Part shown: positions 1,880-38,174 of the stretch, piece by piece
How the letters are laid out: every line of letters begins with the position of its first letter
How positions within the stretch are numbered: position 1 is the stretch's first letter
Source of the DNA: a virus
Lineage: Duplodnaviria; Caudoviricetes
Length of the DNA stretch: 41,029 bases
Reading direction: 5' to 3' (one strand)
IMG/VR virus record: IMGVR_UViG_3300017766_002845
Location: 1-41,029 of that record
Notes under the pieces: generated by a model
Told to the model about the DNA's origin: nothing
Seen by the model: only the letters and a program-made list of their open reading frames with translations
Databases searched by the model: none
Translations under genes and position numbers: made by a program

Positions 1880-4173
1880 TGGCCCGCAGCCTGTACCGCT
1901 CCTTTGCCGGCGGCGAGATCACGCCTGAGCTCTTCGGGCGCATCGACCTGGCCAAGTTCCAGACGGGCTTGGGCCTGTGCTCGAACTTCCGCATCCTGCC
2001 CCACGGCCCGGCCACGCGCCGCCCCGGGTTCGAGTACGCCACCAAGGCCAAGAGCGGCGTGACCCGCATCCTGCCCTTCGTGTTCAGCACGACGCAGTCG
2101 GTGGTGCTCGAGTTTGGCGACCAGTACATCCGCTTCCTGATCGACGGCGCCCCGGTGCTCAACACAGCGCAGAACATCACCGCCATCAGCCAGGCCGCCA
2201 CCGGCGTGCTGACCTACACGGGCGCGGACTACACCAACGGCCAGTTCGTCTTTTTGTCGGGCATCGGCGGCATGACCGCGCTCAACGGGCGCTACGCCGT
2301 GGTCACCAATGTGAACGCAGGCGCCAACACGTTCGAGCTTTTTGACCTGTTCGGCAACCCCATCAACACCTCGGCCCTGCCCGCGTTCACCGCAGGGGGC
2401 ACCGTGGCCTCGGTCTACGAGATCGCCTCGCCCTATCTGGCGGCCGACCTGTTCGGCCTGCGCTACACACAGGACGCCGACGTCTTCACGATCACGTCCA
2501 TCGAGTACGCCACGCGCGAACTGCGCCGTCTGGGCGCCACGAACTGGACGCTGACCGAGGTCGACTTCAGTCCTAGCACCACGGTCCCCACCGGCGTCGG
2601 TGTGGTGGCGACCGTGGCTGTGGCCACGAACCTCTCGCCGCAGAGTTATGTGGTGACCACTATTGACGCCGACGGTGTGACCGAGTCCCTGCAGTCGGCC
2701 ACCGTCACGGCGAGCAACAACCTGAGCCTGGCCGGCAACTTCAACACCATCAGCTGGGGCGCTGTGGCCGGGGCCACCCGGTACAACGTCTACAAGCTGC
2801 GCGGCGGCACCTTCGGGTTCATCGGCTCGGCCACTGGCCTGAGCGTGGTGGACGACAACGTGACAGCCGACACCACGAAGACGCCGCCCCTGGACGACAC
2901 CGCGCTCAACACGGGCGCTGGCGACTACCCCACCGCAGTCACGTACCACGAGCAGCGCCGGTGGCTGGGCGGTACCATGAACTCCCCCCAACGCATCATC
3001 GCAACGCGCAGCGGCACCGAGTCGAACCTCACGACCTCACTGCCAGCGCAGGACGACGACTCGCTGGACTTCCGCGTGCGTGCGCGCCAGCAGAACGCCA
3101 TCATGCATCTGGTGCCGCTGTCGGACCTGATCGCGTTGACCACGGGTGCCGAGTTCCGCATCTTCTCCGACGGCGCGCCAGCCATCACGCCGACCAGCCT
3201 GAGCGTGAAGCCACAGGGCTACACCGGCGCCAGCCAGGTCACCCCCGTGGTGACGTCCGGATCCATCCTGTACGTGCAGGCGCAGGGCTCACGGGTGCGC
3301 GAGCTCTCGTACAACTGGGAGACCCAGGCCTACCGCTCCATCGACATCACCCTGATGGCGCCACACCTGGTGGCCGGGCGCACGGTGGTCGACATGGCCT
3401 ACGTGCGCGCACCTGACCAGACGCTGTGGGCTGTGCGCGACGACGGCACGCTCCTGGGCATGACCTACGTGCCCGAGCAGCAGGTGTACGGCTGGCACCA
3501 GCACAGCACCGACGGTGCGTTCGAGAGCGTGTGCACGGTGCCTGAGAACGGCGAGGACCGGCTCTATGCCGTGATCCGGCGCGAGATCAACGGCGACACA
3601 GTGCGCTACATCGAGCGCATGGCGCAGGGCTTTGTGCCCGAGATCGACGACATCGCCGACGCCATGTTTCTCGACTCGGCGCTGACCTACAGCGGCGCTC
3701 CGATCACGAACATCCGTGGGCTGCACCACCTTGAGGGTGAGACGGTGGACGTCCTGGCCGACGGCACGGTGGAGCCCAGCAAGACCGTGGTCAACGGCGC
3801 CATCACGTTGATCGCGCCGGCCAGCAAGCTGAGCATTGGACTGGGCTTCTCCTCTCGCCTGCGCACGCTGCCATTGGCCATGGAGCGCATGGAAGCCGGC
3901 GGGCAGGGCACGCGCAAGAACGTGGCCAAGGTCCACCTGCGCGTGCGCTCGAGCAACCTGCTGCGCGTTGGCCCGAGCTTCGACAAGCTGACCCTGGCCC
4001 CATCGCGCGACGCAGGCAGCAACTACAATTCGGCCGTCGACCTGCGCACCGGCGAGGTGGCCCTTGTGGTTGCCCCATCGTGGTCCGACGACGGGGCCGT
4101 CTGCGTCGAGCAGAGCAGCCCCCTGCCAACGACCATCGTGTCGATGACCTTGGAGACCGAGTTCGGTGATTGA
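1879..4173 (+). CDS. tail tubular protein B / nozzle (T7 gp12-like)
   Basis: 764 aa; SFAGGEITPELFGRIDL N-terminus, YPTAVTYHEQR, GWHQHSTDG motifs. Confidence 0.85.
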   Translation: MARSLYRSFAGGEITPELFGRIDLAKFQTGLGLCSNFRILPHGPATRRPGFEYATKAKSGVTRILPFVFSTTQSVVLEFGDQYIRFLIDGAPVLNTAQNITAISQAATGVLTYTGADYTNGQFVFLSGIGGMTALNGRYAVVTNVNAGANTFELFDLFGNPINTSALPAFTAGGTVASVYEIASPYLAADLFGLRYTQDADVFTITSIEYATRELRRLGATNWTLTEVDFSPSTTVPTGVGVVATVAVATNLSPQSYVVTTIDADGVTESLQSATVTASNNLSLAGNFNTISWGAVAGATRYNVYKLRGGTFGFIGSATGLSVVDDNVTADTTKTPPLDDTALNTGAGDYPTAVTYHEQRRWLGGTMNSPQRIIATRSGTESNLTTSLPAQDDDSLDFRVRARQQNAIMHLVPLSDLIALTTGAEFRIFSDGAPAITPTSLSVKPQGYTGASQVTPVVTSGSILYVQAQGSRVRELSYNWETQAYRSIDITLMAPHLVAGRTVVDMAYVRAPDQTLWAVRDDGTLLGMTYVPEQQVYGWHQHSTDGAFESVCTVPENGEDRLYAVIRREINGDTVRYIERMAQGFVPEIDDIADAMFLDSALTYSGAPITNIRGLHHLEGETVDVLADGTVEPSKTVVNGAITLIAPASKLSIGLGFSSRLRTLPLAMERMEAGGQGTRKNVAKVHLRVRSSNLLRVGPSFDKLTLAPSRDAGSNYNSAVDLRTGEVALVVAPSWSDDGAVCVEQSSPLPTTIVSMTLETEFGD

Positions 4174-5148: not shown

Positions 5149-6834
5149 ATGCCACGCGTCCCAACCTACGACCAACAGGTAGGCCTGCGCCCCACGGGGA
5201 TCGCGGAGCAGCAGAACCTGGACGTCACGAAGAACGCGCGCGGCCTGGCCGGCGCGCTCAACCAGGTCAGCGAGGTCGCCGACCGCATCGACCTGCGCGA
5301 AGCCACGGCTGCGGCGCAGCAGGCCCAGATCGAAGTGCGAGACCGGTGGTCGGCCTTCGACAACGAACTGCGCAACAAGTACAAGGGCGGCAACGTCGAT
5401 GTGCGGGGCGAGAACGGTGAGGTGGTCGACAGCGTCGAGCTCCAGACCGAGAACTTCTGGAAGGCCGAGAAGGAGCGCCTGGCCAAGGGGCTGAGCCCCC
5501 GCGCGCGCACGCTGGCCAGCAACCAGCTGGCCAACCTGCAGGGCCAGGCGCTCGTCAACACCCGGCAGTACGGTGCGCGCGAGCGCGAGCGCTACCAGAC
5601 CGAGGTGTTCACCGGGTTCAAGCAGACCGAGATCCAGAGCGCCGCAGCCTCGGGCGACCCCGCCAAGGCCGACGCCGCAGCCACCATCATCCAGGCCGAG
5701 AACGCCAAGCACGCGCAGCTGTACGGCCGGCCCCCTGAGTGGGTGGCCGCCGAGACGCAGAAGGACTTGCAGACCCTGCACTCTTCGATGGTGCGCGGCC
5801 TGCTCGAGGGCGACAACCCCGAGCGTGCGCGCGAGTACCTGGACAAGCACAAGGAGCAACTGGGCGTCCTGGGCGCCGAGCTCGCCACCAAGGTCGACAA
5901 CGTGGTGGCCGACGTGAAGGGCCAGCGCCTGGCCGACTCGCTGGCGGCCAAGCCCTACGAGGAGGCCTTGGCCGAAGTGGCCAAGATCGAAGACCCACGC
6001 GAGCGCAAGTCCGCGCGCCTGCAGCTGCAACAGAACCGCGCCGACCAGATGCAGATCCGCGCCGCACGGGAGAAGGAAGCCTCCGACGCCGTGTGGCAGC
6101 TGGTGGCCAACGGCACCCCGGCCGGCAAGTTGCCGCGCGCTGTGCTCGACCAGATGGACGGCAAGGATCGCATGGCCGTCACCGAGCACTACCGGGCCGA
6201 GGCCAAGCGCCGGATGACCGAGGCCGAGGGCCGGTCGGTCAAGACCAACATGAGTGTCCTCGAGGACATCTACAACCTGCCCAAGGACGAGTTCTTGGGG
6301 TTGCGGATTTCCACGCTGCAGGACCAGCTGTCGCGCGCCGATCAGGAGGAACTGATCAAGCGCCAGGCCAAGCTGCGCGAGCCCGGCGAGGAGGTCAAGA
6401 TCGCCACCCGTGAGCAGCAGGTGAGCGCGGCCATGGACCTGCTGGGCTTCGCGTCCAAGGACCAGGAGAAGAAGGGCCTTTTCCGCAAGACGTTCAACGA
6501 CCAGGTGGCGGCGTTCTCCGCAGAGAAGAAAGCCGAGCCCACCTACGCTGAGACGCAAGAGATTCTGAGCCGCCTGATGCGTGAGCGCAAAGCAGGTTGG
6601 TTCGGCGGCAAGCAGCGCTACTTCGAGGCCATCGGCACCGAAGACGCGGCCAAGTTCGATCCACCGCCAGCCGGCGCCGCAGCACCTGCGCCGCGCCCTC
6701 GCGGAGCAGGCACAATCGTGGAGATCGACGGCAACGACCGTCGACTCATCGCAGAAGCACTGCGCGCTGAGAAAGTCCCCGTCACCGAGGACGCCATTCA
6801 GCAACGGTATCGACAGGTCAAAGGCGCTCAATGA
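5149..6834 (+). CDS. internal virion (ejection) protein, gp15-like
   Basis: 561 aa, MPRVPTYD start, helical/coiled-coil; syntenic between the gp14-like and giant virion genes. Confidence 0.7.
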   Translation: MPRVPTYDQQVGLRPTGIAEQQNLDVTKNARGLAGALNQVSEVADRIDLREATAAAQQAQIEVRDRWSAFDNELRNKYKGGNVDVRGENGEVVDSVELQTENFWKAEKERLAKGLSPRARTLASNQLANLQGQALVNTRQYGARERERYQTEVFTGFKQTEIQSAAASGDPAKADAAATIIQAENAKHAQLYGRPPEWVAAETQKDLQTLHSSMVRGLLEGDNPERAREYLDKHKEQLGVLGAELATKVDNVVADVKGQRLADSLAAKPYEEALAEVAKIEDPRERKSARLQLQQNRADQMQIRAAREKEASDAVWQLVANGTPAGKLPRAVLDQMDGKDRMAVTEHYRAEAKRRMTEAEGRSVKTNMSVLEDIYNLPKDEFLGLRISTLQDQLSRADQEELIKRQAKLREPGEEVKIATREQQVSAAMDLLGFASKDQEKKGLFRKTFNDQVAAFSAEKKAEPTYAETQEILSRLMRERKAGWFGGKQRYFEAIGTEDAAKFDPPPAGAAAPAPRPRGAGTIVEIDGNDRRLIAEALRAEKVPVTEDAIQQRYRQVKGAQ

Positions 6835-9800
6835 ACGACAACCCATTTGCACTCCAGAACGTAAAACCCGAAGCCCCAGTTGAACAGGCCCCCGCTCAAG
6901 AAGCGGATAACCCGTTCAGCCTGGCGGCCATTCAGCGCTCGGAGAAGCAACAGCTGCAGGCCACACTGCAGGACGCCGTGCGCGTGCCGCCCGAGAAGGC
7001 CGCACGCGCTGCGCAGCTGAGCAAGAAGCTGCAAATCTACGCCGACCCTCTGTCACAGAGCCTGGCCGACATCGAGCTCCAGGACGCGGTCATGGAGGCC
7101 GACAAGAAGCTGGCCACCTCGCCCAAACTGGCCAAGGCCATGCGCGAGGGCACCGACTTTGCGCGCCAGTCGCACGACGACATCGAGCCGCTGAGCAAGG
7201 TAGAGCGCTCCATCACCGACTACCCCCGCTCTCTGGCCGCTGGCGCCGCGAAGGGCGTTGGCACTGCGCTGACCGGCTCGGCCGAACTGCTGGACATTGG
7301 CGCGCGTGCGCTGGACAGCGGCTACCGCGCGGTGTTTGGTGACAACGCTGCCGACCTGCTGTGGTTCGACAACCCGACCATGGGTGGCGTCGAGATCCAG
7401 ATGAACCCGGGCGCACCGCTGCGCATGGGCGGCGCCGGGTACACGGCCATCGGCGAAGCCGTCGACATTGACGCCAAGAATCGCGCGTTCGACACCGACG
7501 TAGCCTCGGCTGTGGGTCAGATCACCACGCAAATCGTCGCGGCGCTGACCACTGGCGGCGCCTCGATGATCCCCGTTGGCATGTCGCAAGGCGCGGGCGA
7601 GATGGCCGACCGGGTCAAGGCCGACAAGGCCGGCCAGGAGCTCACCGACGTCGCGGTGCTGGCGGGCGCAGCCACCGGCTTGCTGGAGAAGCTGCCCATC
7701 GACAAGATCCTGTCCAACACCCCGGCGCTGCGCGATGGCGTATTCCGGTGGCTTGGCGACAAGGTGGTGGCGGGCGGCCTGGAGGCCACGACCGAGATCA
7801 CGCAGGGCATTTTGATGGACGTGGCGCGCATCGCCACGACCAACCCGGACGCTACCATCGACGTGATCGACAACCTCTACGAGGGTGGTGTCGCCGGCAC
7901 GGCGGCAGCCATCCTGCGCGCAGTCATGGGCATCCGGGGGCGCACGAAGCAGCCTCTCGAGCAGGCCGGCAAGGCCAACGACGACGCCACCAAGCTGAGC
8001 GAGTTGTTCGCTGCGGCGGCCGAGTCGCGCCTGAAGGTGCGCAACGTCGACAGCTTCGCGCAGTTCGTGCAGCAGGCAGCCGACGAAACCGACGGCGCGC
8101 CCTCGGCTGTGTACATCGATGCGCGCACTTTGGCCGACACGCTGCAGCAGGCGGGCGTCAGCGAGGCGCAGATCGCCGAATTGATGCCCACGGTGCCTGA
8201 GCAGCTGCGCGACGCGCTGGCAACCGATGGCGTGGTCGAGATCCCCATCGGGGACATCGCCGCTCGGGTGGTCGGCACGCCCCTGGAGCAGGTGCTGCTC
8301 CAGCACATGCGCGTGGAGCCGGACGGGCTGAGCCAGTTCGAGGCCACCCAGGTTGCGGTCGAGGCCGAAGCCATGTTCCAGCAGGCGGCCACCAGCATCA
8401 CGTCGGGCGCCATCGACATCGCGTCCCTGCAGCAGAGCTCGGAGGCCGTCAAGACCACGGTGCTCGACCAGCTGAACGCCACCAAGCGCTTCCGGCCCGA
8501 GGTGAATGACGCCTACGCCACGCTGGTGCGCGACTTCTACGCCGCCACCAGCGTGCGCCTGGGTGTCACGCCCGACGAGCTCTACGCGCGCTACCCCCTG
8601 CGCGTGATCGGCGCGCCCATCGTGCCTGGCGACACCCCAGCCACCACGTTGAACGCCGAGAACGCCGCGCCCATCACGCTGCCCGAGGGCGTGTCGATTC
8701 GCGAGATTGCGGACGGCACCGGCTTCGAGGCGGTCGACGCCAGCGGTGCAGTGGTCGGTCGCCTGCGCGACAACCTGCTGCGCGGCCAGGCAGAGCAGAT
8801 CAACGAGAACGCCAACATCGACATCGTGGCGGTGGACAAGGAGCGCAAGGGCCAGGGCATCGGCCGCGCGCTGTACGACGCGTTTGACAAGAAGCACGGC
8901 GGGCGCATCGCCCCCAGCGGCAAGACCACACGCGACGCCTGGGCTGTGTGGAAGCGCAACTACCCGGCCAAGGTCGAGCAGTTCGTGCAGCAGGAAGCCG
9001 ACCGCATCGCGCAAGGCGCTGACCCCCAGCAGATCCTGGCCGGCATCACCGACCCCGAGGTCGCGCAGATGGTGGTCGAGCGTCCGTTTATGCAGAGCGG
9101 TATGCCGGCGTCGCCCTTCGCGTTCGCTGCGCCCGCTGAGCAGACCGAGGCCGACCTGGCCAACTCGCGCAACGCGTCGCGCGTGTCGCCCCGCGCCCCC
9201 ACCGGCGTCAAGGCGACCGAGGACCAGTACGGCGAAGAGCGCCTGCAGCCCAGCATCGAGGCGATGAGCCGTGCGCCCAGCGTGCTGGAGAACACCGCGC
9301 GCGAACTGCAGAAGTACCCCAACTTCAGCAACCTGACCGGCACCCCGATGGAGGTGGTGCAGCAGGCCAAGGAGCGCATGAAGGGCAACCTGCGCCGGCT
9401 GATGACAGCCTTCCCACAAGACCTGTCCGACCGTGCGCGCATGTGGTACGTCGGCGGCAACCGGATCGCCCAGCGCTTCGCCGACCGCTACGGGTTCAGC
9501 ACCGAGCAGGCCGCGCTGGCCATCGCCGCGCTCTCGCCCCAGAAGAACTGGTTCGAGAACGTGAGCGCGGCTGAGCGCGTGATGGACATCGTCACGAACC
9601 ACAGCACCGAGCCGTGGTCCGAGGGCATGACCGCCGTGGCCAACAGCCGTGGTTGGTTCGATGACCCACGCATCAGCCAGTCGGTCACGCCAGACATCGC
9701 CGGCAAGTCGCTGCGCGACCTGTTCGACCCGGCCGACATGGACGCCAGCGTTACGCGCATGGCCTGGTGGGTCCGCGCCTTCGACGAGGCAAACAACCCA

Positions 9801-12800
9801 CGCGGCCTGGCGGTCATCACGCCAGAGGGCACGTTCCTGGCCAAGCAGTTTTCCGACAACGCTGTCGGCCGCCCCACGCCGCTGCGCTGGGGCTCGGCCG
9901 GCGAGATCGGCAAGGCCATTCGCGCGCTGATGTCCGAGAGCCCACAGGCTCGCAGCGGCATCGCGGGCGGCGCCCACAAGGTCCGCTCGTTCTACAACAA
10001 CATCGTGGCCCCCTTCGGCGGCGGTGACATCACGGTGGACACCCACGCTGTGGCCGCTGCTCTGCTGCGCCCGCTGGGCGGCACCACACCCGAGGTGCAG
10101 CACGCACTCAGCGGCGCGGTCATGGCGGGCGACCGCGCGCTGGGCTTCGACAGCATCGGCAGCAACAGCATCGTGGGCGTGACCGGCAGCTACGGGGTCT
10201 ACGCTGACGCCTACCGCGAGGTGGCTGACGAGTTCGGCCTGCTCCCGCGCGAGGTGCAGTCGATCACCTGGGAGGCCGTGCGCTTGCTCTTCGACAAGAA
10301 GGGCGCCACACTCAAAGATCAGACCGCCCAGGTGTGGGCGCAATTCAACCAAGGCCTCATCAGCGAGGAGCAGGCACATGAACAAATCTTTGAACTGGCT
10401 GGCGGCATTGGCCGACCAGATTGGGCCGACGGACTTGTCGACCCCCACCCCTTCGACAGCAGCTACCGACGGGATTCAGACCGCGCCGTCGGCACCCCCG
10501 ACCGGCAGTTCGAGGGAGATGTTGCAGCGCAAGCCGCAGCTGGAGGAGTTCAAGACGGTGGAGGAGTTCGAGGAGGCGATGGGCAGCTGGCAGCTGCACC
10601 AGCAGCGGATCTTGGCCTTGACCGCCCCCTCGCCGGCCTCCCAGCAACCGTCAGCGTCGATGGCGTAGAGGTCACCTTCGGCCCGTTCGCGCTCGCGCGC
10701 ACGGCGGCGGCCAACTACATGGCCAAGGCGGGCCTGCCCTACTCGCCACCCACCACCTACGCAGAGGTCGACCCCGAGCGCGCACGGCGCATCGCCGACG
10801 CGTTCGAGGCCATGCCGCACAACCCGAACGACCCCGAGGTCAAAGCCGCCTACGACGCGCTGGTGCGCGAAACGATGGCCCAGTGGCAGGCGGTCAAGGA
10901 GACCGGCCTGGTGGTGGAGTTCATCACCGGTGCGGACCCCTACGGCAACCCACGCAACGCCATCCTGGACGTGGTGCAGAACAACCACCTGTGGGTCTAC
11001 CCGACCGACGCGGGCTTCGGCGGCACCGAGTCCCTGGACGTCGACATCAGCGGCAACCCGCTGCTGGCTGTCGTGCCTGGCGAGCGCATCGCTGGGCGCG
11101 AGGTGCGCGTGAACGACCTGTTCCGCATCGTCCACGATTACTTTGGCCACATCAAAGAGGGTGTGGGCTTCCGCGCCGGTGGCGAGGAGAATGCCTGGCG
11201 CTCGCACTGGGCCATGTTCAGCCCGCTGGCGCGCGCCGCGCTCACGACCGAGACCCGTGGCCAGAACAGCTGGGTGAACTTCGGCCCCTACGCCGAGTTC
11301 AACAAGACGGCCAACGGCGGCGACACGCAGTACGCCCCGCAGAAGGTAGGCCTGCTGCCAGCATGGGCGGTGAACGAGGGCGCGACCGACGCGAACCCCG
11401 AGACCGGCGTCTACAACCAGTCGGCCGCCGCGCCCACCAAGGGTGTGCACTTCAGCAAGCAGCCGCGCATGATGCTTGACGGGCGCCTGTACGGCACGGG
11501 GCTCAAGGGCCTCGAGGCCGAGCGCATCGCAGCCAGTGGCGACCCCCGCCTGGCCGAGCGCGTGTACTTCTACATCGACGAGGGAAAGGGCATTCGACCC
11601 GAGGCCGGTGTTGGCGGCTTTGCGCACGAGGTGCAGCTGCCCCCGCTGTACGACGCGAAGGCCAACCCAGAAGGGCTGTGGGCCGCCGACCTGAACGTGG
11701 CCGAGCAGCGCATCCTGGACGCCGGCTACGCGGGCTACTTTGTGAGCAACGCGTTCAACGGTCAGGGCGCCGCTGTCGTGATCGGCAAGGCCTCGCGCGG
11801 CCTGCAAGCCGCGCAGATTCCCAACCCCACGACGGGCTACACCCCCGACCCGATGCGCGTGCCCACGCGCCTGACGCTCAGCCGTGAGCAGCTGGCTGCG
11901 CTCGACGAGCAGGCACTGCGGGCCGCCGCGCCCAGCGCCACCATTGACCGCAGCTTCGTGGCTGTGCGCCCTTCCTCGCTGTTCGTGGACGCGGCAGAGC
12001 TCGCGGCCATCCAGGACCAGCTGGCCGCCGCTGGCGTGGCGCTGCCTGCACAGAGCCAGTCGCTGCAACAGGGCCCCCGAGGCACGTTCAACCCGAGCAC
12101 GCTGACGATCAACCTGCTCGAGGCCGCCGACCTGTCGACCTTCCTGCACGAGACTGGGCACTTCTTCCTCGAGGTGATGGCCGACATCGCCAGCCAGCCC
12201 AACGCGCCGATGGACATCCAGAAGGACATGGGCGACGTGCTGGCGTGGTTCGGTGTGACCGACCTCTACGAGTGGAACACCCGCACGCTGGAGCAAAAGC
12301 GCCCCTACCACGAGAAGTTTGCCGAGTCGTTCGAGCGCTACCTGCTGGACGGCAAGTCCCCCAGCGTTGAGCTCAACTCGATCTTCGGGCGCTTCCGGTC
12401 GTGGATGCTGTCGGTGTACCGCTCGCTCAAGAACTTCATGGCGGTCAACACGAACGCGCAGTTGAGCGACGAGGTGCGCGCGGTGTTCGACCGGATGCTG
12501 GCCACCGACGAGCAGATCCAGCTGGCCGAGCAAATGGCCGGCTACGAGGCGGTGTACAAAACGGCCGACGAGGCTGGCATGAGCCCCGAGGAGTGGGCCG
12601 ACTACCAGGCCAAGCACCGCGCGGGGACCGAGCGCGCGATTGCCGAGATGCAGTCACGCAGCATCCGCGACCTGAAGTGGAGCATCAACGCCCGCAGCCG
12701 CGCCATGCGCGAACTGCAGCGCGAGACCAACGACCGGCGCAAGGCGATGCGCCTGGACGTGCAGGCCGAGGTGCGCGCGATGCCGGTGTACGCTGTGCAG

Positions 12801-15800
12801 CGCTGGCTCAAGACCGGCAAGATGCCCGATGGCGTCACCACCGTGGGCGGCAAGCTCTCGACCGCTGCGCTGCGCGAGATGTACGGGGACAACCCCGCCT
12901 CGCTGTGGCGCTACCTGGCCACCAACATGGTGACCAACGACAAGGTGGCCGGCTTGCACCCCAACGTGGTGGCCGACATGTTCGGCTTCCCCAACGGCGA
13001 CGCGCTGGTGCGCGAGATCGTCGACGCCTTCCCTGAAGAGCAGACCATCGACGGCATGACCGAGCAGCGCCTGCTCGAGACCTACGGCGAAGCGGTCACG
13101 CTGGACGGCATGGAAGCGGCTGCGACCGAGGCCATCCACAACGAGGCCCGGGCGCGCGCTGTCGCCACCGAGGTGGCCACCATGCGCAAGGCCTTGGGCC
13201 AGCGCGAGGGCAAGGTCAACGTGCTGATGAAGGCTGCCCGCCAGTTCGCGGAGCAGCTGGTGGCCCGGCGCAAGATCAAAGACCTCAAGCCCTCGGTCTT
13301 CACCGGTGCCGAGGCGCGTGCGGGCAAGAAGGCGCAGCGCGCCATGGCGGCCGGCGACCAGCAAGGCGCGGTCACCGCCAAGCGCGACCAGCTGCTGAAC
13401 CACTACGCGGCGAAGAACACCATGGCGGCGCTCAAGGAAGTCGAGCGCGGCCTGGCGTACCTGAAGAAGTTCGACAAAGAGACGGTGCGCAAGAACGTCG
13501 ACAACGGCTACCTCGACCAGATCGACCAGCTGCTCGAGCGCTTCGACCTGCGCGTCTCGGTGACGCAGCGCGACCTGGCCAAGCGGGCTTCGTTGCGCGA
13601 GTGGCTGGATTCGCAGCGCGAGGTGGGCCTGAACCCGACCGTGCCGCGCAGCATCGAGAACGAGGCCTACTCCCTGAGCTACAAGGAGATGCCGCTCGAG
13701 GAGTTCCGTGGGCTGGTCGAGACCGTGAAGAACATCGAACATCTGGGCCGGCTGAAGGAAAAGCTGCTGCGCGCCAAGGACGAGCGCGACTTCACCACCA
13801 TCGTCGACGAGATCACCGCCACGATCTACGACAGCACCGACAAGCGCACGGTGGAGCGCCTGAACGCCCCCACCAAGAAGGACCGCGCGGTCGACCTGTT
13901 GAAGAACTTCAGCAGCATGCACCGCAAGCTCTCGAGCTACATCCGGCAGCTGGACGGCTTCAAGGACGGCGGCCCGTTGTGGCGCGCTTTCGGGCGCAGC
14001 ATGAACGAGGCGGCCGACAGCGAGCAGACGATGATCGACAAGTCCAACCGCGCGCTGGCCGACATCTTCAAGCCCATGATCGAAGGCGGCAAGCTGCGCG
14101 AGCGGGTCAAGGTGCCCGGCATCCGGGAGACCCTGACGCTGGAGACGCGCCTGGCCGTGGCCCTGAACTGGGGCAACGACACCAACCGCAAGCGCGTGCT
14201 GGAGGGTGATGGCTGGTCGCAGGGCCAGGTCGACGCCATCCTGTCTTCGCTCACCGGCCCGCAGCTGGACTTCGTGCAGAAGGTGTGGGACCACATCGAC
14301 AGCTTCTGGCCAGCCATCAAGGCCAAGGAAGAGCGCCTGAGCGGCAGCGCCCCGGACAAGGTCGAGGCCAGTTCGTTCACGGTCAACGTGGATGGCCAGG
14401 CGCGCGTGATGCGTGGCGGCTACTACCCCATCAAGTACGACACGGCGCGCAGCGACAAGGCCGGCCAGCTGGACGCAGCGGCCATCGCGCAGCAGATGAA
14501 GCTGGGCGTGTTCAGCCGCAGCAGCACGCGCCGGGGGCACCTCGAGGAGCGCGCAGCTGGCGGCCTTGGCCCGGTGCGCAAGGACATCGGTGTCGTGTTC
14601 GAGCACGTAAACCAGGTGGTGCACGACCTGGCATGGCATGAGTGGCTGATCGACGCCAACCGCATCGTGCGCGACCCGCGCGTGCGCGCAGCTATCCGCG
14701 ACACGCTCGGCCCAGAGGTGCTGGACGAGTTCGTCAAGACGCTGCCCGACATCGCGGCCGGTGACGTGCCTGCGGCCTCGGCCTTCGAGCGCGGCATTAG
14801 CCACCTGCGCAACGGCACCACGGTGGTGGGCATGGGCTGGAACCTCGTGACCGCCATGATGCAGCCATTGGGCCTGACCCAGTCCATGGCGCGCATCGGG
14901 CCGAAGTGGGTGGCCAAAGGCATGGGCCGGTGGGTCGGCGACGCAGCCAAGCTGGAGAGCAGCGCGAAGTGGATGTACGAGAAGTCCGAGTTCATGCGCC
15001 TGCGCAGCACGGCGCTGAACCGGGAGGTGCGCGACCTGCGGGGCAAGCTGACGGGCGAGATGCCGTCGGCGCTGCAGGACACCTACTTCTGGTTCATCAT
15101 GAAGGGCCAGATCATCGCCGACCTGCCGACGTGGTACGGCCAGTACGAGAAGACCATGGCCGAGAGCAATGGCGACGAGTCGTTGGCGTTTGCCATGGCC
15201 GACCAGGCCGTGCGCGACTCGCAGGGCGGCGGGGCCATCAGCGACCTGGCGCGCATCCAACGTGGCGGCCCGCTGCAGAAACTCTTCACGAACTTCTACA
15301 GCTACTTCAGCACGACCTACAACCTGTTGGCCGAGCGCACCGCGCGCACCAGCTTCAAAGACCCGGTGTCGGTGGCGCGGTGGATGTCGGACTTCTTGCT
15401 CGTGGCTGTCGCACCGTCGGTGCTGGTCACACTGCTGAAGGCCGCCGTCAACGCAGCCATGGGCGGCGAAGACGACGAGGACGAGATCCTGGAGGCGGTG
15501 ATCCGGGACCAGATCGGTTTCCTGATGGGCACCATGGTCGGCCTGCGCGAACTGAGCGCGGCCACCAACGGCTTCTTCGGGTACAGCGGCCCGGCCGGCA
15601 CCCGGTTCTTCAGTGAGTTTGCCAAGCTGGGCAAGCAGATCGAGCAGGGCGAAGTCGACAAGGCGCTGCTCAAGGCGCTGAACAACAGCGCGGGCATCTT
15701 GCTGCACTACCCGGCCGGGGCCATCAACCGCTTCGTGGAGGGCGCGGTGGCGCTGAACGAGGGCGAGACCGAGAACCCTGCCGTCATGGTGTTCGGCCCA

Positions 15801-15812
15801 CCCCGGGACTGA
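6831..15812 (+). CDS. giant polyvalent internal virion protein (GNAT, HhH-glycosylase-like, HDxxGH, ART-like and zincin domains)
   Basis: 2993-aa ORF at the gp16 position; motifs VAVDKERKGQGIG, AALSPQKNW/KVRSFYNNI/VDTH/QSITW, FRIVHDYFGH, GVHFS/VYFY, TFLHETGH. Confidence 0.85.
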   Translation: MNDNPFALQNVKPEAPVEQAPAQEADNPFSLAAIQRSEKQQLQATLQDAVRVPPEKAARAAQLSKKLQIYADPLSQSLADIELQDAVMEADKKLATSPKLAKAMREGTDFARQSHDDIEPLSKVERSITDYPRSLAAGAAKGVGTALTGSAELLDIGARALDSGYRAVFGDNAADLLWFDNPTMGGVEIQMNPGAPLRMGGAGYTAIGEAVDIDAKNRAFDTDVASAVGQITTQIVAALTTGGASMIPVGMSQGAGEMADRVKADKAGQELTDVAVLAGAATGLLEKLPIDKILSNTPALRDGVFRWLGDKVVAGGLEATTEITQGILMDVARIATTNPDATIDVIDNLYEGGVAGTAAAILRAVMGIRGRTKQPLEQAGKANDDATKLSELFAAAAESRLKVRNVDSFAQFVQQAADETDGAPSAVYIDARTLADTLQQAGVSEAQIAELMPTVPEQLRDALATDGVVEIPIGDIAARVVGTPLEQVLLQHMRVEPDGLSQFEATQVAVEAEAMFQQAATSITSGAIDIASLQQSSEAVKTTVLDQLNATKRFRPEVNDAYATLVRDFYAATSVRLGVTPDELYARYPLRVIGAPIVPGDTPATTLNAENAAPITLPEGVSIREIADGTGFEAVDASGAVVGRLRDNLLRGQAEQINENANIDIVAVDKERKGQGIGRALYDAFDKKHGGRIAPSGKTTRDAWAVWKRNYPAKVEQFVQQEADRIAQGADPQQILAGITDPEVAQMVVERPFMQSGMPASPFAFAAPAEQTEADLANSRNASRVSPRAPTGVKATEDQYGEERLQPSIEAMSRAPSVLENTARELQKYPNFSNLTGTPMEVVQQAKERMKGNLRRLMTAFPQDLSDRARMWYVGGNRIAQRFADRYGFSTEQAALAIAALSPQKNWFENVSAAERVMDIVTNHSTEPWSEGMTAVANSRGWFDDPRISQSVTPDIAGKSLRDLFDPADMDASVTRMAWWVRAFDEANNPRGLAVITPEGTFLAKQFSDNAVGRPTPLRWGSAGEIGKAIRALMSESPQARSGIAGGAHKVRSFYNNIVAPFGGGDITVDTHAVAAALLRPLGGTTPEVQHALSGAVMAGDRALGFDSIGSNSIVGVTGSYGVYADAYREVADEFGLLPREVQSITWEAVRLLFDKKGATLKDQTAQVWAQFNQGLISEEQAHEQIFELAGGIGRPDWADGLVDPHPFDSSYRRDSDRAVGTPDRQFEGDVAAQAAAGGVQDGGGVRGGDGQLAAAPAADLGLDRPLAGLPATVSVDGVEVTFGPFALARTAAANYMAKAGLPYSPPTTYAEVDPERARRIADAFEAMPHNPNDPEVKAAYDALVRETMAQWQAVKETGLVVEFITGADPYGNPRNAILDVVQNNHLWVYPTDAGFGGTESLDVDISGNPLLAVVPGERIAGREVRVNDLFRIVHDYFGHIKEGVGFRAGGEENAWRSHWAMFSPLARAALTTETRGQNSWVNFGPYAEFNKTANGGDTQYAPQKVGLLPAWAVNEGATDANPETGVYNQSAAAPTKGVHFSKQPRMMLDGRLYGTGLKGLEAERIAASGDPRLAERVYFYIDEGKGIRPEAGVGGFAHEVQLPPLYDAKANPEGLWAADLNVAEQRILDAGYAGYFVSNAFNGQGAAVVIGKASRGLQAAQIPNPTTGYTPDPMRVPTRLTLSREQLAALDEQALRAAAPSATIDRSFVAVRPSSLFVDAAELAAIQDQLAAAGVALPAQSQSLQQGPRGTFNPSTLTINLLEAADLSTFLHETGHFFLEVMADIASQPNAPMDIQKDMGDVLAWFGVTDLYEWNTRTLEQKRPYHEKFAESFERYLLDGKSPSVELNSIFGRFRSWMLSVYRSLKNFMAVNTNAQLSDEVRAVFDRMLATDEQIQLAEQMAGYEAVYKTADEAGMSPEEWADYQAKHRAGTERAIAEMQSRSIRDLKWSINARSRAMRELQRETNDRRKAMRLDVQAEVRAMPVYAVQRWLKTGKMPDGVTTVGGKLSTAALREMYGDNPASLWRYLATNMVTNDKVAGLHPNVVADMFGFPNGDALVREIVDAFPEEQTIDGMTEQRLLETYGEAVTLDGMEAAATEAIHNEARARAVATEVATMRKALGQREGKVNVLMKAARQFAEQLVARRKIKDLKPSVFTGAEARAGKKAQRAMAAGDQQGAVTAKRDQLLNHYAAKNTMAALKEVERGLAYLKKFDKETVRKNVDNGYLDQIDQLLERFDLRVSVTQRDLAKRASLREWLDSQREVGLNPTVPRSIENEAYSLSYKEMPLEEFRGLVETVKNIEHLGRLKEKLLRAKDERDFTTIVDEITATIYDSTDKRTVERLNAPTKKDRAVDLLKNFSSMHRKLSSYIRQLDGFKDGGPLWRAFGRSMNEAADSEQTMIDKSNRALADIFKPMIEGGKLRERVKVPGIRETLTLETRLAVALNWGNDTNRKRVLEGDGWSQGQVDAILSSLTGPQLDFVQKVWDHIDSFWPAIKAKEERLSGSAPDKVEASSFTVNVDGQARVMRGGYYPIKYDTARSDKAGQLDAAAIAQQMKLGVFSRSSTRRGHLEERAAGGLGPVRKDIGVVFEHVNQVVHDLAWHEWLIDANRIVRDPRVRAAIRDTLGPEVLDEFVKTLPDIAAGDVPAASAFERGISHLRNGTTVVGMGWNLVTAMMQPLGLTQSMARIGPKWVAKGMGRWVGDAAKLESSAKWMYEKSEFMRLRSTALNREVRDLRGKLTGEMPSALQDTYFWFIMKGQIIADLPTWYGQYEKTMAESNGDESLAFAMADQAVRDSQGGGAISDLARIQRGGPLQKLFTNFYSYFSTTYNLLAERTARTSFKDPVSVARWMSDFLLVAVAPSVLVTLLKAAVNAAMGGEDDEDEILEAVIRDQIGFLMGTMVGLRELSAATNGFFGYSGPAGTRFFSEFAKLGKQIEQGEVDKALLKALNNSAGILLHYPAGAINRFVEGAVALNEGETENPAVMVFGPPRD
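10378..10668 (+). CDS. candidate overprinted gene (+1 frame) nested in the giant virion gene, 96 aa
   Basis: GAGGAG 7 nt before the ATG; GC3 bias moves from the main frame to this frame over about 10515-10665. Confidence 0.6.
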   Translation: MNKSLNWLAALADQIGPTDLSTPTPSTAATDGIQTAPSAPPTGSSREMLQRKPQLEEFKTVEEFEEAMGSWQLHQQRILALTAPSPASQQPSASMA

Positions 15813-35812: not shown

Positions 35813-35903
35813 AAGGACCGTCAGGCGAGGCATCTGCCGCGCAGCCGAAAGGCTGTACGGGGTGGTGCTCGTGGCAGGTGTCTCACCTGACGGCCCTTTT
35901 CTT
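35813..35903 (+). ncRNA. long hairpin leader/attenuator upstream of the primase
   Basis: About 29-bp imperfect stem enclosing a cagcc-gaaa-ggctg GNRA hairpin, followed by ttttctt. Confidence 0.55.
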
Positions 35904-35924
35904 CAACGCACCACCCTAGAAACA

Positions 35925-38174
35925 ATGACCACATCACGCTGGGGCGCAACGCCCGACGACTGGAATTTCCTCTGCACCCAAGGCATCACCACCGACCTGC
36001 TCCCTGTGGTCTCGAACCCGCAGGCCGTGATCTCGGAGCGGTCGGCCATGAAGGATCTGGGCAAGACGCCATCGCGCTACAACGGCGCGCGGGAGGCCGT
36101 GGGCATCCCGAAGTGGACCACGGCCCAGACCGAAGAGCGCGAGGTCAAGCGCTGGCTGCAGGACGGCGACCTGGGCATCTGCGTGCAGACGCGCAGCTGG
36201 CGCGCCATCGACATCGACATCGCTGACCCAGCCCGCGCGGCCGAGGTGCGTGAGCTCATCGAGATGACCGCCGGCAAGATGCAGCTGCGCATGCGCCCCA
36301 ACAGCGGCAAATGCCTGCTGGTCTTCCAGTACGACGGCCCGCTGACCAAGCGCGTGATCAAGACCCAGGACGGCATCATCGAGCTCCTGGCCACGGGCCA
36401 GCAGTTCATCGCCGTGGGCACCCACACCTCGGGCGTGCGCTACGAGTGGCCCGAGGGGCTGCCTGGCGAGCACTTCCCCGTGGTCGAGCTCACGCTGCGC
36501 GAGATCGACGACCTGTGGGCTGGCCTGATGTCGGTGTTCGGCCTGTCGCAGACCGAGCAGAAGGCCGGCGTGCGGCCCACGGTGGCGCGCTCGCACGAGC
36601 AGATGCATGGCGACCCCCTGGTGCCGTTCCTGCAGGACAACGGCTGGGTGCGCAGCTACGACAACGACGGCCGGGTCCATGTGCGCTGCCCATGGGAGGA
36701 CCAGCACACCACCGACTCGGGTGACACCGCCACCTCGTACTTCCCCATCGGCGTTGGGGGCTTCGCCAATGGTGGTTTCAAGTGTCTGCACGCTCACTGC
36801 GACACCAAGCACCTGGGCAACTTCGAGCAGGCCGTCGGGTTCATCGCCAGCGAGTTCGAGATCATCCCCGAGACCCCGCCACCACTGGTGCAGGGCGAGA
36901 GCCAGCCAGGCGTCGGCCGGGCGTTGGGCCTGTTCGACACCGACGAGGCCTGGCCGGTGCTCACGCGCACCAGCAGCGGGGCCAAGAAGGGCCGCATCGA
37001 GTGCACGGCCAACAACATGCTGCTCATGCTCGCGCGCCCCGACATCGTGCGCTGCCGCGTGGCGCTGGACAAGTTCAAGCAGGTCATCCTGATCGAGTGG
37101 GCGCCCGAGCTCGCGGCGCAGAACAGCCCGGGCGATGAGCCTGGCCAGTGGCGCCCGCTGGGTGACAGCGACTACATCTACATCCAGCAGCAGCTGGACC
37201 TGCGCGGCGTGTCCGACCCCTCCACCGAGAAGGTGCGCGCAGCGGTCAGGGCGGTAGCTGCCAGCTTCGCGTTCGACAGCGCCATGCTGTGGGCCCGGGG
37301 CCTGCACTGGGACGGCGCGGAGCGCATCCCTGAGTTCTTCTCGCGGTACATGGGTGTGGCCGCGTCGGCGTACACCACAGCGGTGTCCAACTACATGTGG
37401 ACGGCCATGGCCGGGCGCTGCCTGAGCCCAGGCATCAAGGCCGACATGGTGCCGGTGTTCATCGGCGAGCAGGGCTCGGGCAAGACCTCGCTGGTGGAGG
37501 CCCTGGCACCGGAGCCGGGCGCGTACCTCTCGGTGGACTTGTCGCACCGCGACGACAACCTGGCTCGCGCCATGCGCGGCAAGCTGGTGGGCGAGCTCGG
37601 TGAGTTGCGCGGGCTGCAGACGCGCGAGGCCGAGTCCATCAAGGAGTGGCTCACGCGGCGCTCGGACGAGTGGGTGCCCAAGTTCGTGGAGTTCGCCACC
37701 GTCTACCCGCGCCGGATCCTGTTCATCGGCACCGGCAACAACGAGGAGTTTCTGAGCGACCCCACAGGCTCGCGGCGCTGGTTGCCGTTGATGGTGGGCA
37801 GGACCGACATGGAGGCGCTGGTGCGGGATCGCGACCAGCTGTGGGCCGAGGCGGTCATGAAGTTCGACCTGGAGGGCATCGCCTGGCGCGAGGCGCACGA
37901 CCTGGCCAAGCACGAGCACGAGGACTTCAGGGTGGTGGACGCCATCGAACGCGACATCCAGACCTGGCTCGAGACCGACGGCATGGACGACAAGGAGGGC
38001 GTGCCAAGGGGCTCTCAACCGTTCCACATCAGCGTTTTGATGGCGGGTTTGGGCAAGGCGGGGGCCGGACGTGCGGACCAGATGCGGTTCGCTGCGGCGC
38101 TGAAAGCGCTCGGCTACAAGGTGCGCGTGACCAAGGATGGAGCCCGCAGTGTGCGGGTTTGGGTGAAGGCATGA
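35925..38174 (+). CDS. bifunctional primase-polymerase / VirE (VapE)-type SF3 helicase
   Basis: IDIDI prim-pol motif; CPWEDQH...FKCLHAHC zinc motif; GEQGSGKT Walker A; FIGTGN, DPTGSRRW, RDQLWAEA. Confidence 0.9.
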   Translation: MTTSRWGATPDDWNFLCTQGITTDLLPVVSNPQAVISERSAMKDLGKTPSRYNGAREAVGIPKWTTAQTEEREVKRWLQDGDLGICVQTRSWRAIDIDIADPARAAEVRELIEMTAGKMQLRMRPNSGKCLLVFQYDGPLTKRVIKTQDGIIELLATGQQFIAVGTHTSGVRYEWPEGLPGEHFPVVELTLREIDDLWAGLMSVFGLSQTEQKAGVRPTVARSHEQMHGDPLVPFLQDNGWVRSYDNDGRVHVRCPWEDQHTTDSGDTATSYFPIGVGGFANGGFKCLHAHCDTKHLGNFEQAVGFIASEFEIIPETPPPLVQGESQPGVGRALGLFDTDEAWPVLTRTSSGAKKGRIECTANNMLLMLARPDIVRCRVALDKFKQVILIEWAPELAAQNSPGDEPGQWRPLGDSDYIYIQQQLDLRGVSDPSTEKVRAAVRAVAASFAFDSAMLWARGLHWDGAERIPEFFSRYMGVAASAYTTAVSNYMWTAMAGRCLSPGIKADMVPVFIGEQGSGKTSLVEALAPEPGAYLSVDLSHRDDNLARAMRGKLVGELGELRGLQTREAESIKEWLTRRSDEWVPKFVEFATVYPRRILFIGTGNNEEFLSDPTGSRRWLPLMVGRTDMEALVRDRDQLWAEAVMKFDLEGIAWREAHDLAKHEHEDFRVVDAIERDIQTWLETDGMDDKEGVPRGSQPFHISVLMAGLGKAGAGRADQMRFAAALKALGYKVRVTKDGARSVRVWVKA

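Follow-up and report, generated by a model that had tools for sequence, protein, structure and literature searches.

Nested gene in a giant virion protein gene

The locus described here raises the question of what a second reading frame is doing inside the gene of a giant virion protein and which partner, if any, its small product serves. The window, by which we mean the whole stretch of DNA analyzed, is IMGVR_UViG_3300017766_002845, a virus record of 41,029 bases that is 92% complete. The gene at 6831..15812 (plus strand, 8,982 nt), whose frame is the host or main frame in what follows, encodes a protein of 2,993 residues, in which Pfam identifies LPD22 at residues 41 to 129 and also DUF7178. 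On its 5′ side, the genes at 4166 and 4635 match the T7 gp13 family (below the cut-off) and the T7 gp14 family, respectively. From this gene context and from the account of phage polyvalent proteins by Iyer et al. 2017 (PMC5512222), we infer that the product is a polyvalent protein of the ejection type: LPD22, DUF7178, and a further domain, called X here, are found in one large protein with a T7 gp14-like neighbor, and the likeness to the proteins treated in the main text of that paper extends to the giant multidomain layout, the virion-gene context, and the enzyme-like domains joined by linkers.

The linker of interest follows DUF7178 (9363..10424, plus strand; Pfam E value of 2e-23; model pLDDT of 92), which the first-pass annotation had called glycosylase-like. 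Structural comparison of the model supports this reading, since the top 22 matches listed are all DNA glycosylases or queuine-salvage enzymes (Z scores of 8.8 to 4.6, the next, unrelated match being at 3.7), with the best at a Z score of 8.8 and an rmsd of 4.1 over 183 aligned residues; a Foldseek search with the same model gave no significant match. We take the fold to be that of the HhH-GPD superfamily, with the invariant residues K206 and D226 as putative catalytic positions.

The nested open reading frame (ORF) runs in the +1 frame from ATG 10378 to TAG 10668 (10378..10668, plus strand, 96 codons), and every element that had been described for it is present in the sequence, namely, the Shine-Dalgarno sequence GAGGAG at 10365..10370 (plus strand; −8.1 kcal/mol; no listed difference in three close relatives), the 7-nt spacer, the ATG, and the 96 codons. 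An open +1 frame is unremarkable on its own because the frame was open in 58.5% of 20,000 synonymous resamplings, and it was both open and ATG-initial in 3.7%. Codon choice departs further from chance, as 45 of 98 main-frame codons end in A or T, a count matched by none of the 20,000 resamplings, and the excess is present in each half of the ORF (16 of 47 codons, where the mean was 4.3, and 25 of 36, where it was 3.8). Over 10518 to 10622, the main-frame GC3 falls to 0.29, compared to 0.90 for the whole gene, while the GC3 of the +1 frame is 1.00, and the 30-codon windows starting at 10461 to 10551 are the only ones in the 8,982-nt gene in which another frame outscores the main frame. The frame-specific GC3 check proposed in the first-pass annotation thus came out as expected, and the excess of A/T-ending codons that it had placed over 10515 to 10665 is beyond chance, but the strong +1-frame signal stops near 10625, not at 10665.

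Selection was assessed on 58 matches to the peptide family (family B, see below), one of which was dropped for want of the anchor motif, leaving 47 unique sequences and 40 under 90% identity. Among 10 disjoint homologous pairs, the uncorrected pN/pS was 0.37 in the nested frame and 1.04 in the main frame, the latter value being partly a by-product of the constraint on the nested frame, since the overlap inflates it. Nucleotide entropy across the 40 sequences peaks at the third position of the nested codons (1.41 versus 1.13 and 1.16), which is the opposite of the pattern left by main-frame selection, and the mean BLOSUM score, 1.84 versus 0.70, also counts for selection on the nested frame. 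The main frame is open in 40 of 40 sequences and the third frame has stops in 21. Three contigs that are ∼90% alike (X3, X4, and X7, from three runs) carry the nested ORF with no stop or listed indel in the parts covered, to 10622 in X3 and to 10665 in X4 and X7, and of the 16 codons changed in X4, 5 are silent in the nested frame versus 1 in the main frame. The earlier proposals that selection acts on the nested frame and that close homologs keep it uninterrupted are therefore borne out and, at the level of sequence comparison, these data establish that purifying selection maintains a small gene in the +1 frame of the linker. We regard the gene as almost certainly real and its translation from its own ribosome-binding site as likely. 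In searches of 9800 to 10800 for a sigma-70-type promoter or a terminator, a weak test, none was found, and the predicted mRNA structure at the nested start is not unusual (z of −0.23).

Linkage of the nested helix to the downstream domain

Family B was noticed on reading the frames 5′ of domain X, and its profile was made from 24 B peptides. The core, KPQLEEFKTVEEFEEAMGSWQLHQQRILALT (10519..10653, plus strand), appears from profile and alignment to be an acidic amphipathic helix with the motif KP..F...EEFEEA...W, and the complex model described below predicts that it binds X. When the window was left out of the profile, its peptide was still recovered, at an E value of 8e-15, with the next match at 0.013; single-sequence searches with the 49-residue peptide gave no match, and family database searches gave no family assignment for the nested peptide.

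The search for B covered the fetched loci and the called proteins (10 matches without context in the latter), so that copies distant from X would be missed. The fetched loci included 57 viral loci with DUF7178, 80 viral loci with X, and 80 metagenome loci that were collected later by X alone. B occurs in 33 of the 80 viral X loci, which were the source of profile training, and in 0 of the 57 viral DUF7178 loci. In the metagenome set it is found in 24 of 80 loci, always in the +1 frame and 107 to 143 nt before X; 22 of these 24 lack an exact training stretch, some of them possibly being close kin nonetheless, and no other match above 11 bits was present among the 6,812 ORFs of these loci. B was also found in 5 of 52 genome loci and in 1 of 3 phage records.

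Once loci with less than 240 nt upstream had been dropped and the remainder collapsed at 90% identity (155 to 105), the nonredundant set of X copies contained 41 with B, 20 with another helix in the same slot (family C, see below), and 44 with neither; B or C is thus seen in 61 of 105, and diverged or remote partners in the other 44 would escape detection. Because no partner was detected for 44 copies, 41 of which retain both the HDxxGH and GEE motifs, the peptide does not appear to be obligatory, unlike in a strict toxin-immunity pair. Among 38 sequences lying upstream of B, 26 clusters or contexts are distinguished, and DUF7178 precedes B in the window only. The linkage data thus show that the family B helix, the one singled out in the first-pass annotation, travels with the downstream domain X and not with DUF7178. 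Co-occurrence with the upstream domain, as had been predicted, is therefore not seen; what survives as the best reading is the more general idea that a neighboring enzyme-like domain has a small partner, that domain being X.

Linkage by itself would yield co-occurrence, and the paired alignments come from the same loci, so B could be a small gene in its own right, or one whose product mimics a substrate and targets a host protein, that hitch-hikes beside X. Against this stand the tight, fixed spacing across the 26 upstream contexts, the persistence of B next to X, as a separate gene and with a different frame relation, in a Paraburkholderia sediminicola locus, and a complex score far above the controls, and we regard hitch-hiking as the least probable of the explanations considered.

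The Paraburkholderia sediminicola locus (L236) has a free-standing B gene of 84 codons at 1706-1960, directly followed by a stand-alone X gene with a likely start at ATG 1962. X and B also lie near a gene there that, by its motif, we take to be MuF-like. A possible cassette is seen in a metagenome-assembled genome (MAG; L226:1944-2867), where a C-terminal X fragment is followed by B and then by X; just before it lies a gene end that resembles threonine dehydrogenase. Both arrangements would suit a peptide that neutralizes the X of related phages, as in superinfection-type immunity, or an antidote cassette kept by the host; the second of them sits beside a housekeeping-like gene. The window gene, however, lies inside a late structural gene with no sigma-70-type promoter detected around it, and such a role seems quite unlikely for it.

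The B-X pair is carried by bacterial isolates and by a deposited cyanophage record (OL906435.1), that of Planktothrix phage Pag-Yong1, in which an unannotated B gene is nested in a large polyvalent protein (L218:1172-1381, about 2122-2331 of the record). Three phage records under different host names are each 65,014 long and have equal scores.

Start site and N-terminal extension

Most B relatives start about 45 to 70 codons before the stop, and these lengths suggested ATG 10519 as the start in the window. This candidate was dropped for the window lineage. The Shine-Dalgarno sequence of ATG 10378 ranks second among the 15 +1-frame ATGs of the gene, compared to −2.3 kcal/mol for ATG 10519; there is no change at 10362 to 10433 among the differences listed for X3, X4, and X7 (2 to 6 further differences per contig are unlisted); and ATG 10519 is replaced by a Thr codon in X3. 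For these reasons the peptide likely starts at ATG 10378 in this lineage, with an extension of 47 residues. In the family as a whole, an ATG lies within 40 codons 5′ of 44 of 51 unique B cores versus 65 of 192 control positions, and a Shine-Dalgarno value of −4.5 or lower accompanies 32 of 51 versus 18 of 192.

The extension (10378..10518, plus strand, 47 codons) overlaps the C terminus of DUF7178. Its pattern SLNWLA..D.QIG recurs in a +1-frame ORF of a second locus (L001), with 15 of 38 residues identical; the DUF7178 of that locus is 68% identical, there is no X nearby, and the ORF has its own Shine-Dalgarno sequence and a GC3 dip to 0.43. A search for further close DUF7178 relatives returned just the contig of this locus and one unrelated match. 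Judging from this one distant relative, the extension may form another element under constraint that is linked to DUF7178. Two called proteins (P0160 and P0161) have B fused behind different N-terminal stretches, as in the 96-residue product of the window.

Carried further, these observations would make the nested protein a partner of the upstream DUF7178, at most through its N-terminal 47 codons, the 96-mer then being a fusion of two peptides. The unchanged stretch around ATG 10378, the loss of ATG 10519 in X3, the L001 ORF, and the fusions of B behind other N-terminal stretches are all in keeping with this. The shared residues, on the other hand, coincide with conserved residues of the main frame and with an initiation region, a single distant relative was found, none of the 57 DUF7178 loci has B after the domain, and the small ORF that often accompanies DUF7178 elsewhere is unlike both the window ORF and the L001 ORF. 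We consider this explanation very unlikely and retain X as the probable partner.

That small ORF defines a separate family, A (LTRE.YL.LAY), distinct from B, which follows the domain in many DUF7178 loci. Where the main ORF continues, the family A gene is nested, and where the main ORF stops, it is free-standing, examples in the +1 frame or as overlapping free genes on the plus strand being L002:3501-3662, L005:3483-3638, and L015:3603-3773; it is convergent and antisense, on the minus strand, in L008:3577-3720, L009:3430-3576, and L017-L019, none of them profile seeds. With seeds included, A accompanies 23 of 37 nonredundant DUF7178 copies, and profile comparison gave no match of A to the window ORF or the L001 ORF. 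One locus (L274:1795-1992) has the order of the window, a DUF7178-like end, a linker, and X, and its nested gene is of family A and not of family B, which, like the X copies for which no partner was detected, counts against a strict toxin-immunity reading. Family C helices, such as DLSHLDDPEEIAAWQKHRER and WDPEEEGRLEQAAYQKHRQR, occupy the slot of B about 50 to 135 nt before X in the 20 copies counted above (examples are L083, L091, L128, L192, L199, and L201; profile from 12 seeds). Families A, B, and C showed no mutual alignment, the hhalign probability of C to B being 0.7%. The pairing of DUF7178 with A parallels that of X with B and suggests a general rule.

Domain X, a putative metalloenzyme

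Domain X (HDYFGH; 10632..11390, plus strand) is delimited by alignment and predicted to be globular, with a model pLDDT of 91 and a pTM of 0.90; it corresponds to phrog_3170, of unknown function. Its invariant residues are H168, D169, H173, E185, H192, E207, and the ETRGQNS stretch, with many Arg, Asn, and Gln. Searches of Pfam, NCBIfam, PDB sequences, Foldseek, VIA, and named Atlas clusters gave no clear match, which does not by itself demonstrate a new fold. Aromatic amino acid hydroxylase was considered as an identity for X and dropped, the matches being at an E value of 0.38 and weaker. The best structural match is a minimal metallopeptidase (Z score of 2.8, rmsd of 4.4, 91 residues aligned), and one X member matches MATCAP weakly, at an E value of 0.0098.

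DPP III and MATCAP are zincins of the HExxxH type. Like them, X has a helix with an H-x4-H pattern and, after it, a helix that bears a Glu (HDYFGH...GEENAW), and the invariant E185 lies at a helix start in the model. X differs in that Asp replaces the general-base Glu: HDxxGH is found in 104 of 105 copies, there is no HE form, and X thus falls outside the HExxH/HExxxH definition. We infer that X is an enzyme that depends on a metal and has an acidic substrate. An HExxxH zincin variant, the MPTase clade, is mentioned in PMC5512222, and X may be among the LPD or MPTase sets of that paper.

Homologs of X are found in phage polyvalent and head-morphogenesis proteins, with 213 phage records of which 199 are mycobacteriophages, and the homolog in Rhodococcus phage E3 is annotated as structural. 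The X of the mycobacteriophage records is a distant form, as in Colt gp97 (L219:1285-2586), a locus without a B, A, or C match. Compared to BFVD, the X model also has weak matches, at ranks 23 to 32, to uncharacterized podophage proteins of 160 to 200 residues (LKA1, shl2, and Percy), which are possibly stand-alone minimal forms of X.

Predicted complex of the peptide and domain X

Modeling of X with residues 1 to 40 of the peptide, counted from 10519, gave a score of 0.68 (0.68, 0.46, and 0.70 in the individual runs), while the best of three controls scored 0.00. Of 157 solved complexes, 116 attain the score mark used, as do 2 of 215 mismatched pairs; with our own alignments these counts are only a rough guide. 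The runs have at least 85% of contacts in common, with a partner pLDDT of at least 68. Invariant residues make up 16 of the 41 interface residues versus 49 of 253 overall (P = 0.001), and in the model, which places the peptide on the conserved cleft of X, its invariant E19 meets the invariant R181 of X. H168, H173, and H192 are absent from the listed contacts, so the peptide would border the putative metal site and not cap it. Searches by sequence and by fold gave no similar solved complex for X, which makes it less likely that the score reflects a structure already known to the predictor. The modeling supports binding of the peptide to X, which we consider probable.

What the peptide would do to X is a separate matter. 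A folding chaperone, an activator, or an adaptor for packaging or ejection would have the same linkage and the same complex model, would leave the putative metal histidines outside the interface, and could be dispensable, as the peptide is in 44 of 105 X copies. X is, however, predicted to fold well alone, the contacts are enriched in invariant polar residues of the cleft, and the presence of the apparently unrelated family C in the same slot would be more in line with interchangeable immunity proteins, and a chaperone or adaptor role is consequently judged improbable, if less so than the other alternatives. On balance, and with slightly better than even confidence, we favor the peptide as a putative cognate inhibitor of X made from the same mRNA, X itself having no assigned activity.

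As an inhibitor, the peptide would come from the late mRNA that also encodes X and would hold X inactive in the cell that makes it. At packaging or ejection it would stay behind or be removed, X then becoming active in the next host. Nesting would allow an internal enzyme domain and its antidote to move as one DNA module during domain shuffling, which is possible because frame 0 across the antidote encodes a tolerant linker. More tentatively, and with less than even confidence, the loci could reflect a hidden layer of antidote genes overprinted in linkers (B or C with X, and A with DUF7178), each shuffled with its domain, with X a new family of metalloenzyme effectors; two such peptides would be fused in the window because their domains became neighbors.

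This reading bears on a question left by the polyvalent-protein model, namely, how a multienzyme payload is made without acting in the producing cell. It also indicates that "linkers" can hold genes that annotation misses. The analysis points to a specific pair that can be tested, a helix of 35 residues and a domain of 250, together with the interface residues, and the peptide offers a way into an enzyme family whose function has yet to be assigned.

Comparison with known systems

The main text of Iyer et al. (PMC5512222) does not use "overlap," applies "nested" to hairpins only, and has passages on immunity and inhibitors without partner peptides. Our literature search, with most subscription papers outside its reach, found no description of partner genes nested within those of polyvalent proteins. 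The partner assignment and the predicted binding are what is new here.

In MuF polymorphic toxins, as presented by Jamet et al. 2017 (PMC5576092), a C-terminal toxin is followed by a separate, small immunity ORF. The pair described here resembles these toxins in having a phage-delivered enzyme domain and an adjacent small ORF of less than 150 residues. It departs from the MuF arrangement of a small ORF right after a C-terminal toxin, since B precedes X, is nested within the gene that encodes X, and is not detected for many X copies, and X is internal.

Two-component spanins such as lambda Rz/Rz1 occur in embedded, overlapped, and separated architectures, according to Kongari et al. 2018 (PMC6139136). 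Common to embedded spanins and B-X are a same-strand inner gene whose product complexes with the outer product, as predicted for B-X, and varied architectures. Unlike a spanin, the 96-residue product of the window has no cysteine and hence no lipobox, there is no lysis context, and the partner domain, which belongs to an ejection protein, is soluble and enzyme-like. A further parallel, described in bioRxiv 10.1101/2024.11.07.622342, is an engineered overlapping insertion in an alternate frame, in which the inner toxin is unrelated to the outer protein; that system is synthetic, whereas the window pair is natural, and for its inner product binding to the outer protein is predicted. The architecture of B-X is thus similar to that of embedded spanins and its logic to that of MuF pairs, but it lacks defining features of each.

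Other features of the window

Two further stretches of the giant protein were noted, both without a frame switch. The first, at 8670-9000, is GNAT-like without a family match, and we take its RKGQGIG to be a GNAT-type motif; the second, at 12000-12600, has a canonical HETGH zincin-like motif (phrog_9880, function unknown). Outside the giant gene, a VapE-like domain protein (E value of 6e-53) is encoded at 35862-38174 and is probably a replication primase-helicase.
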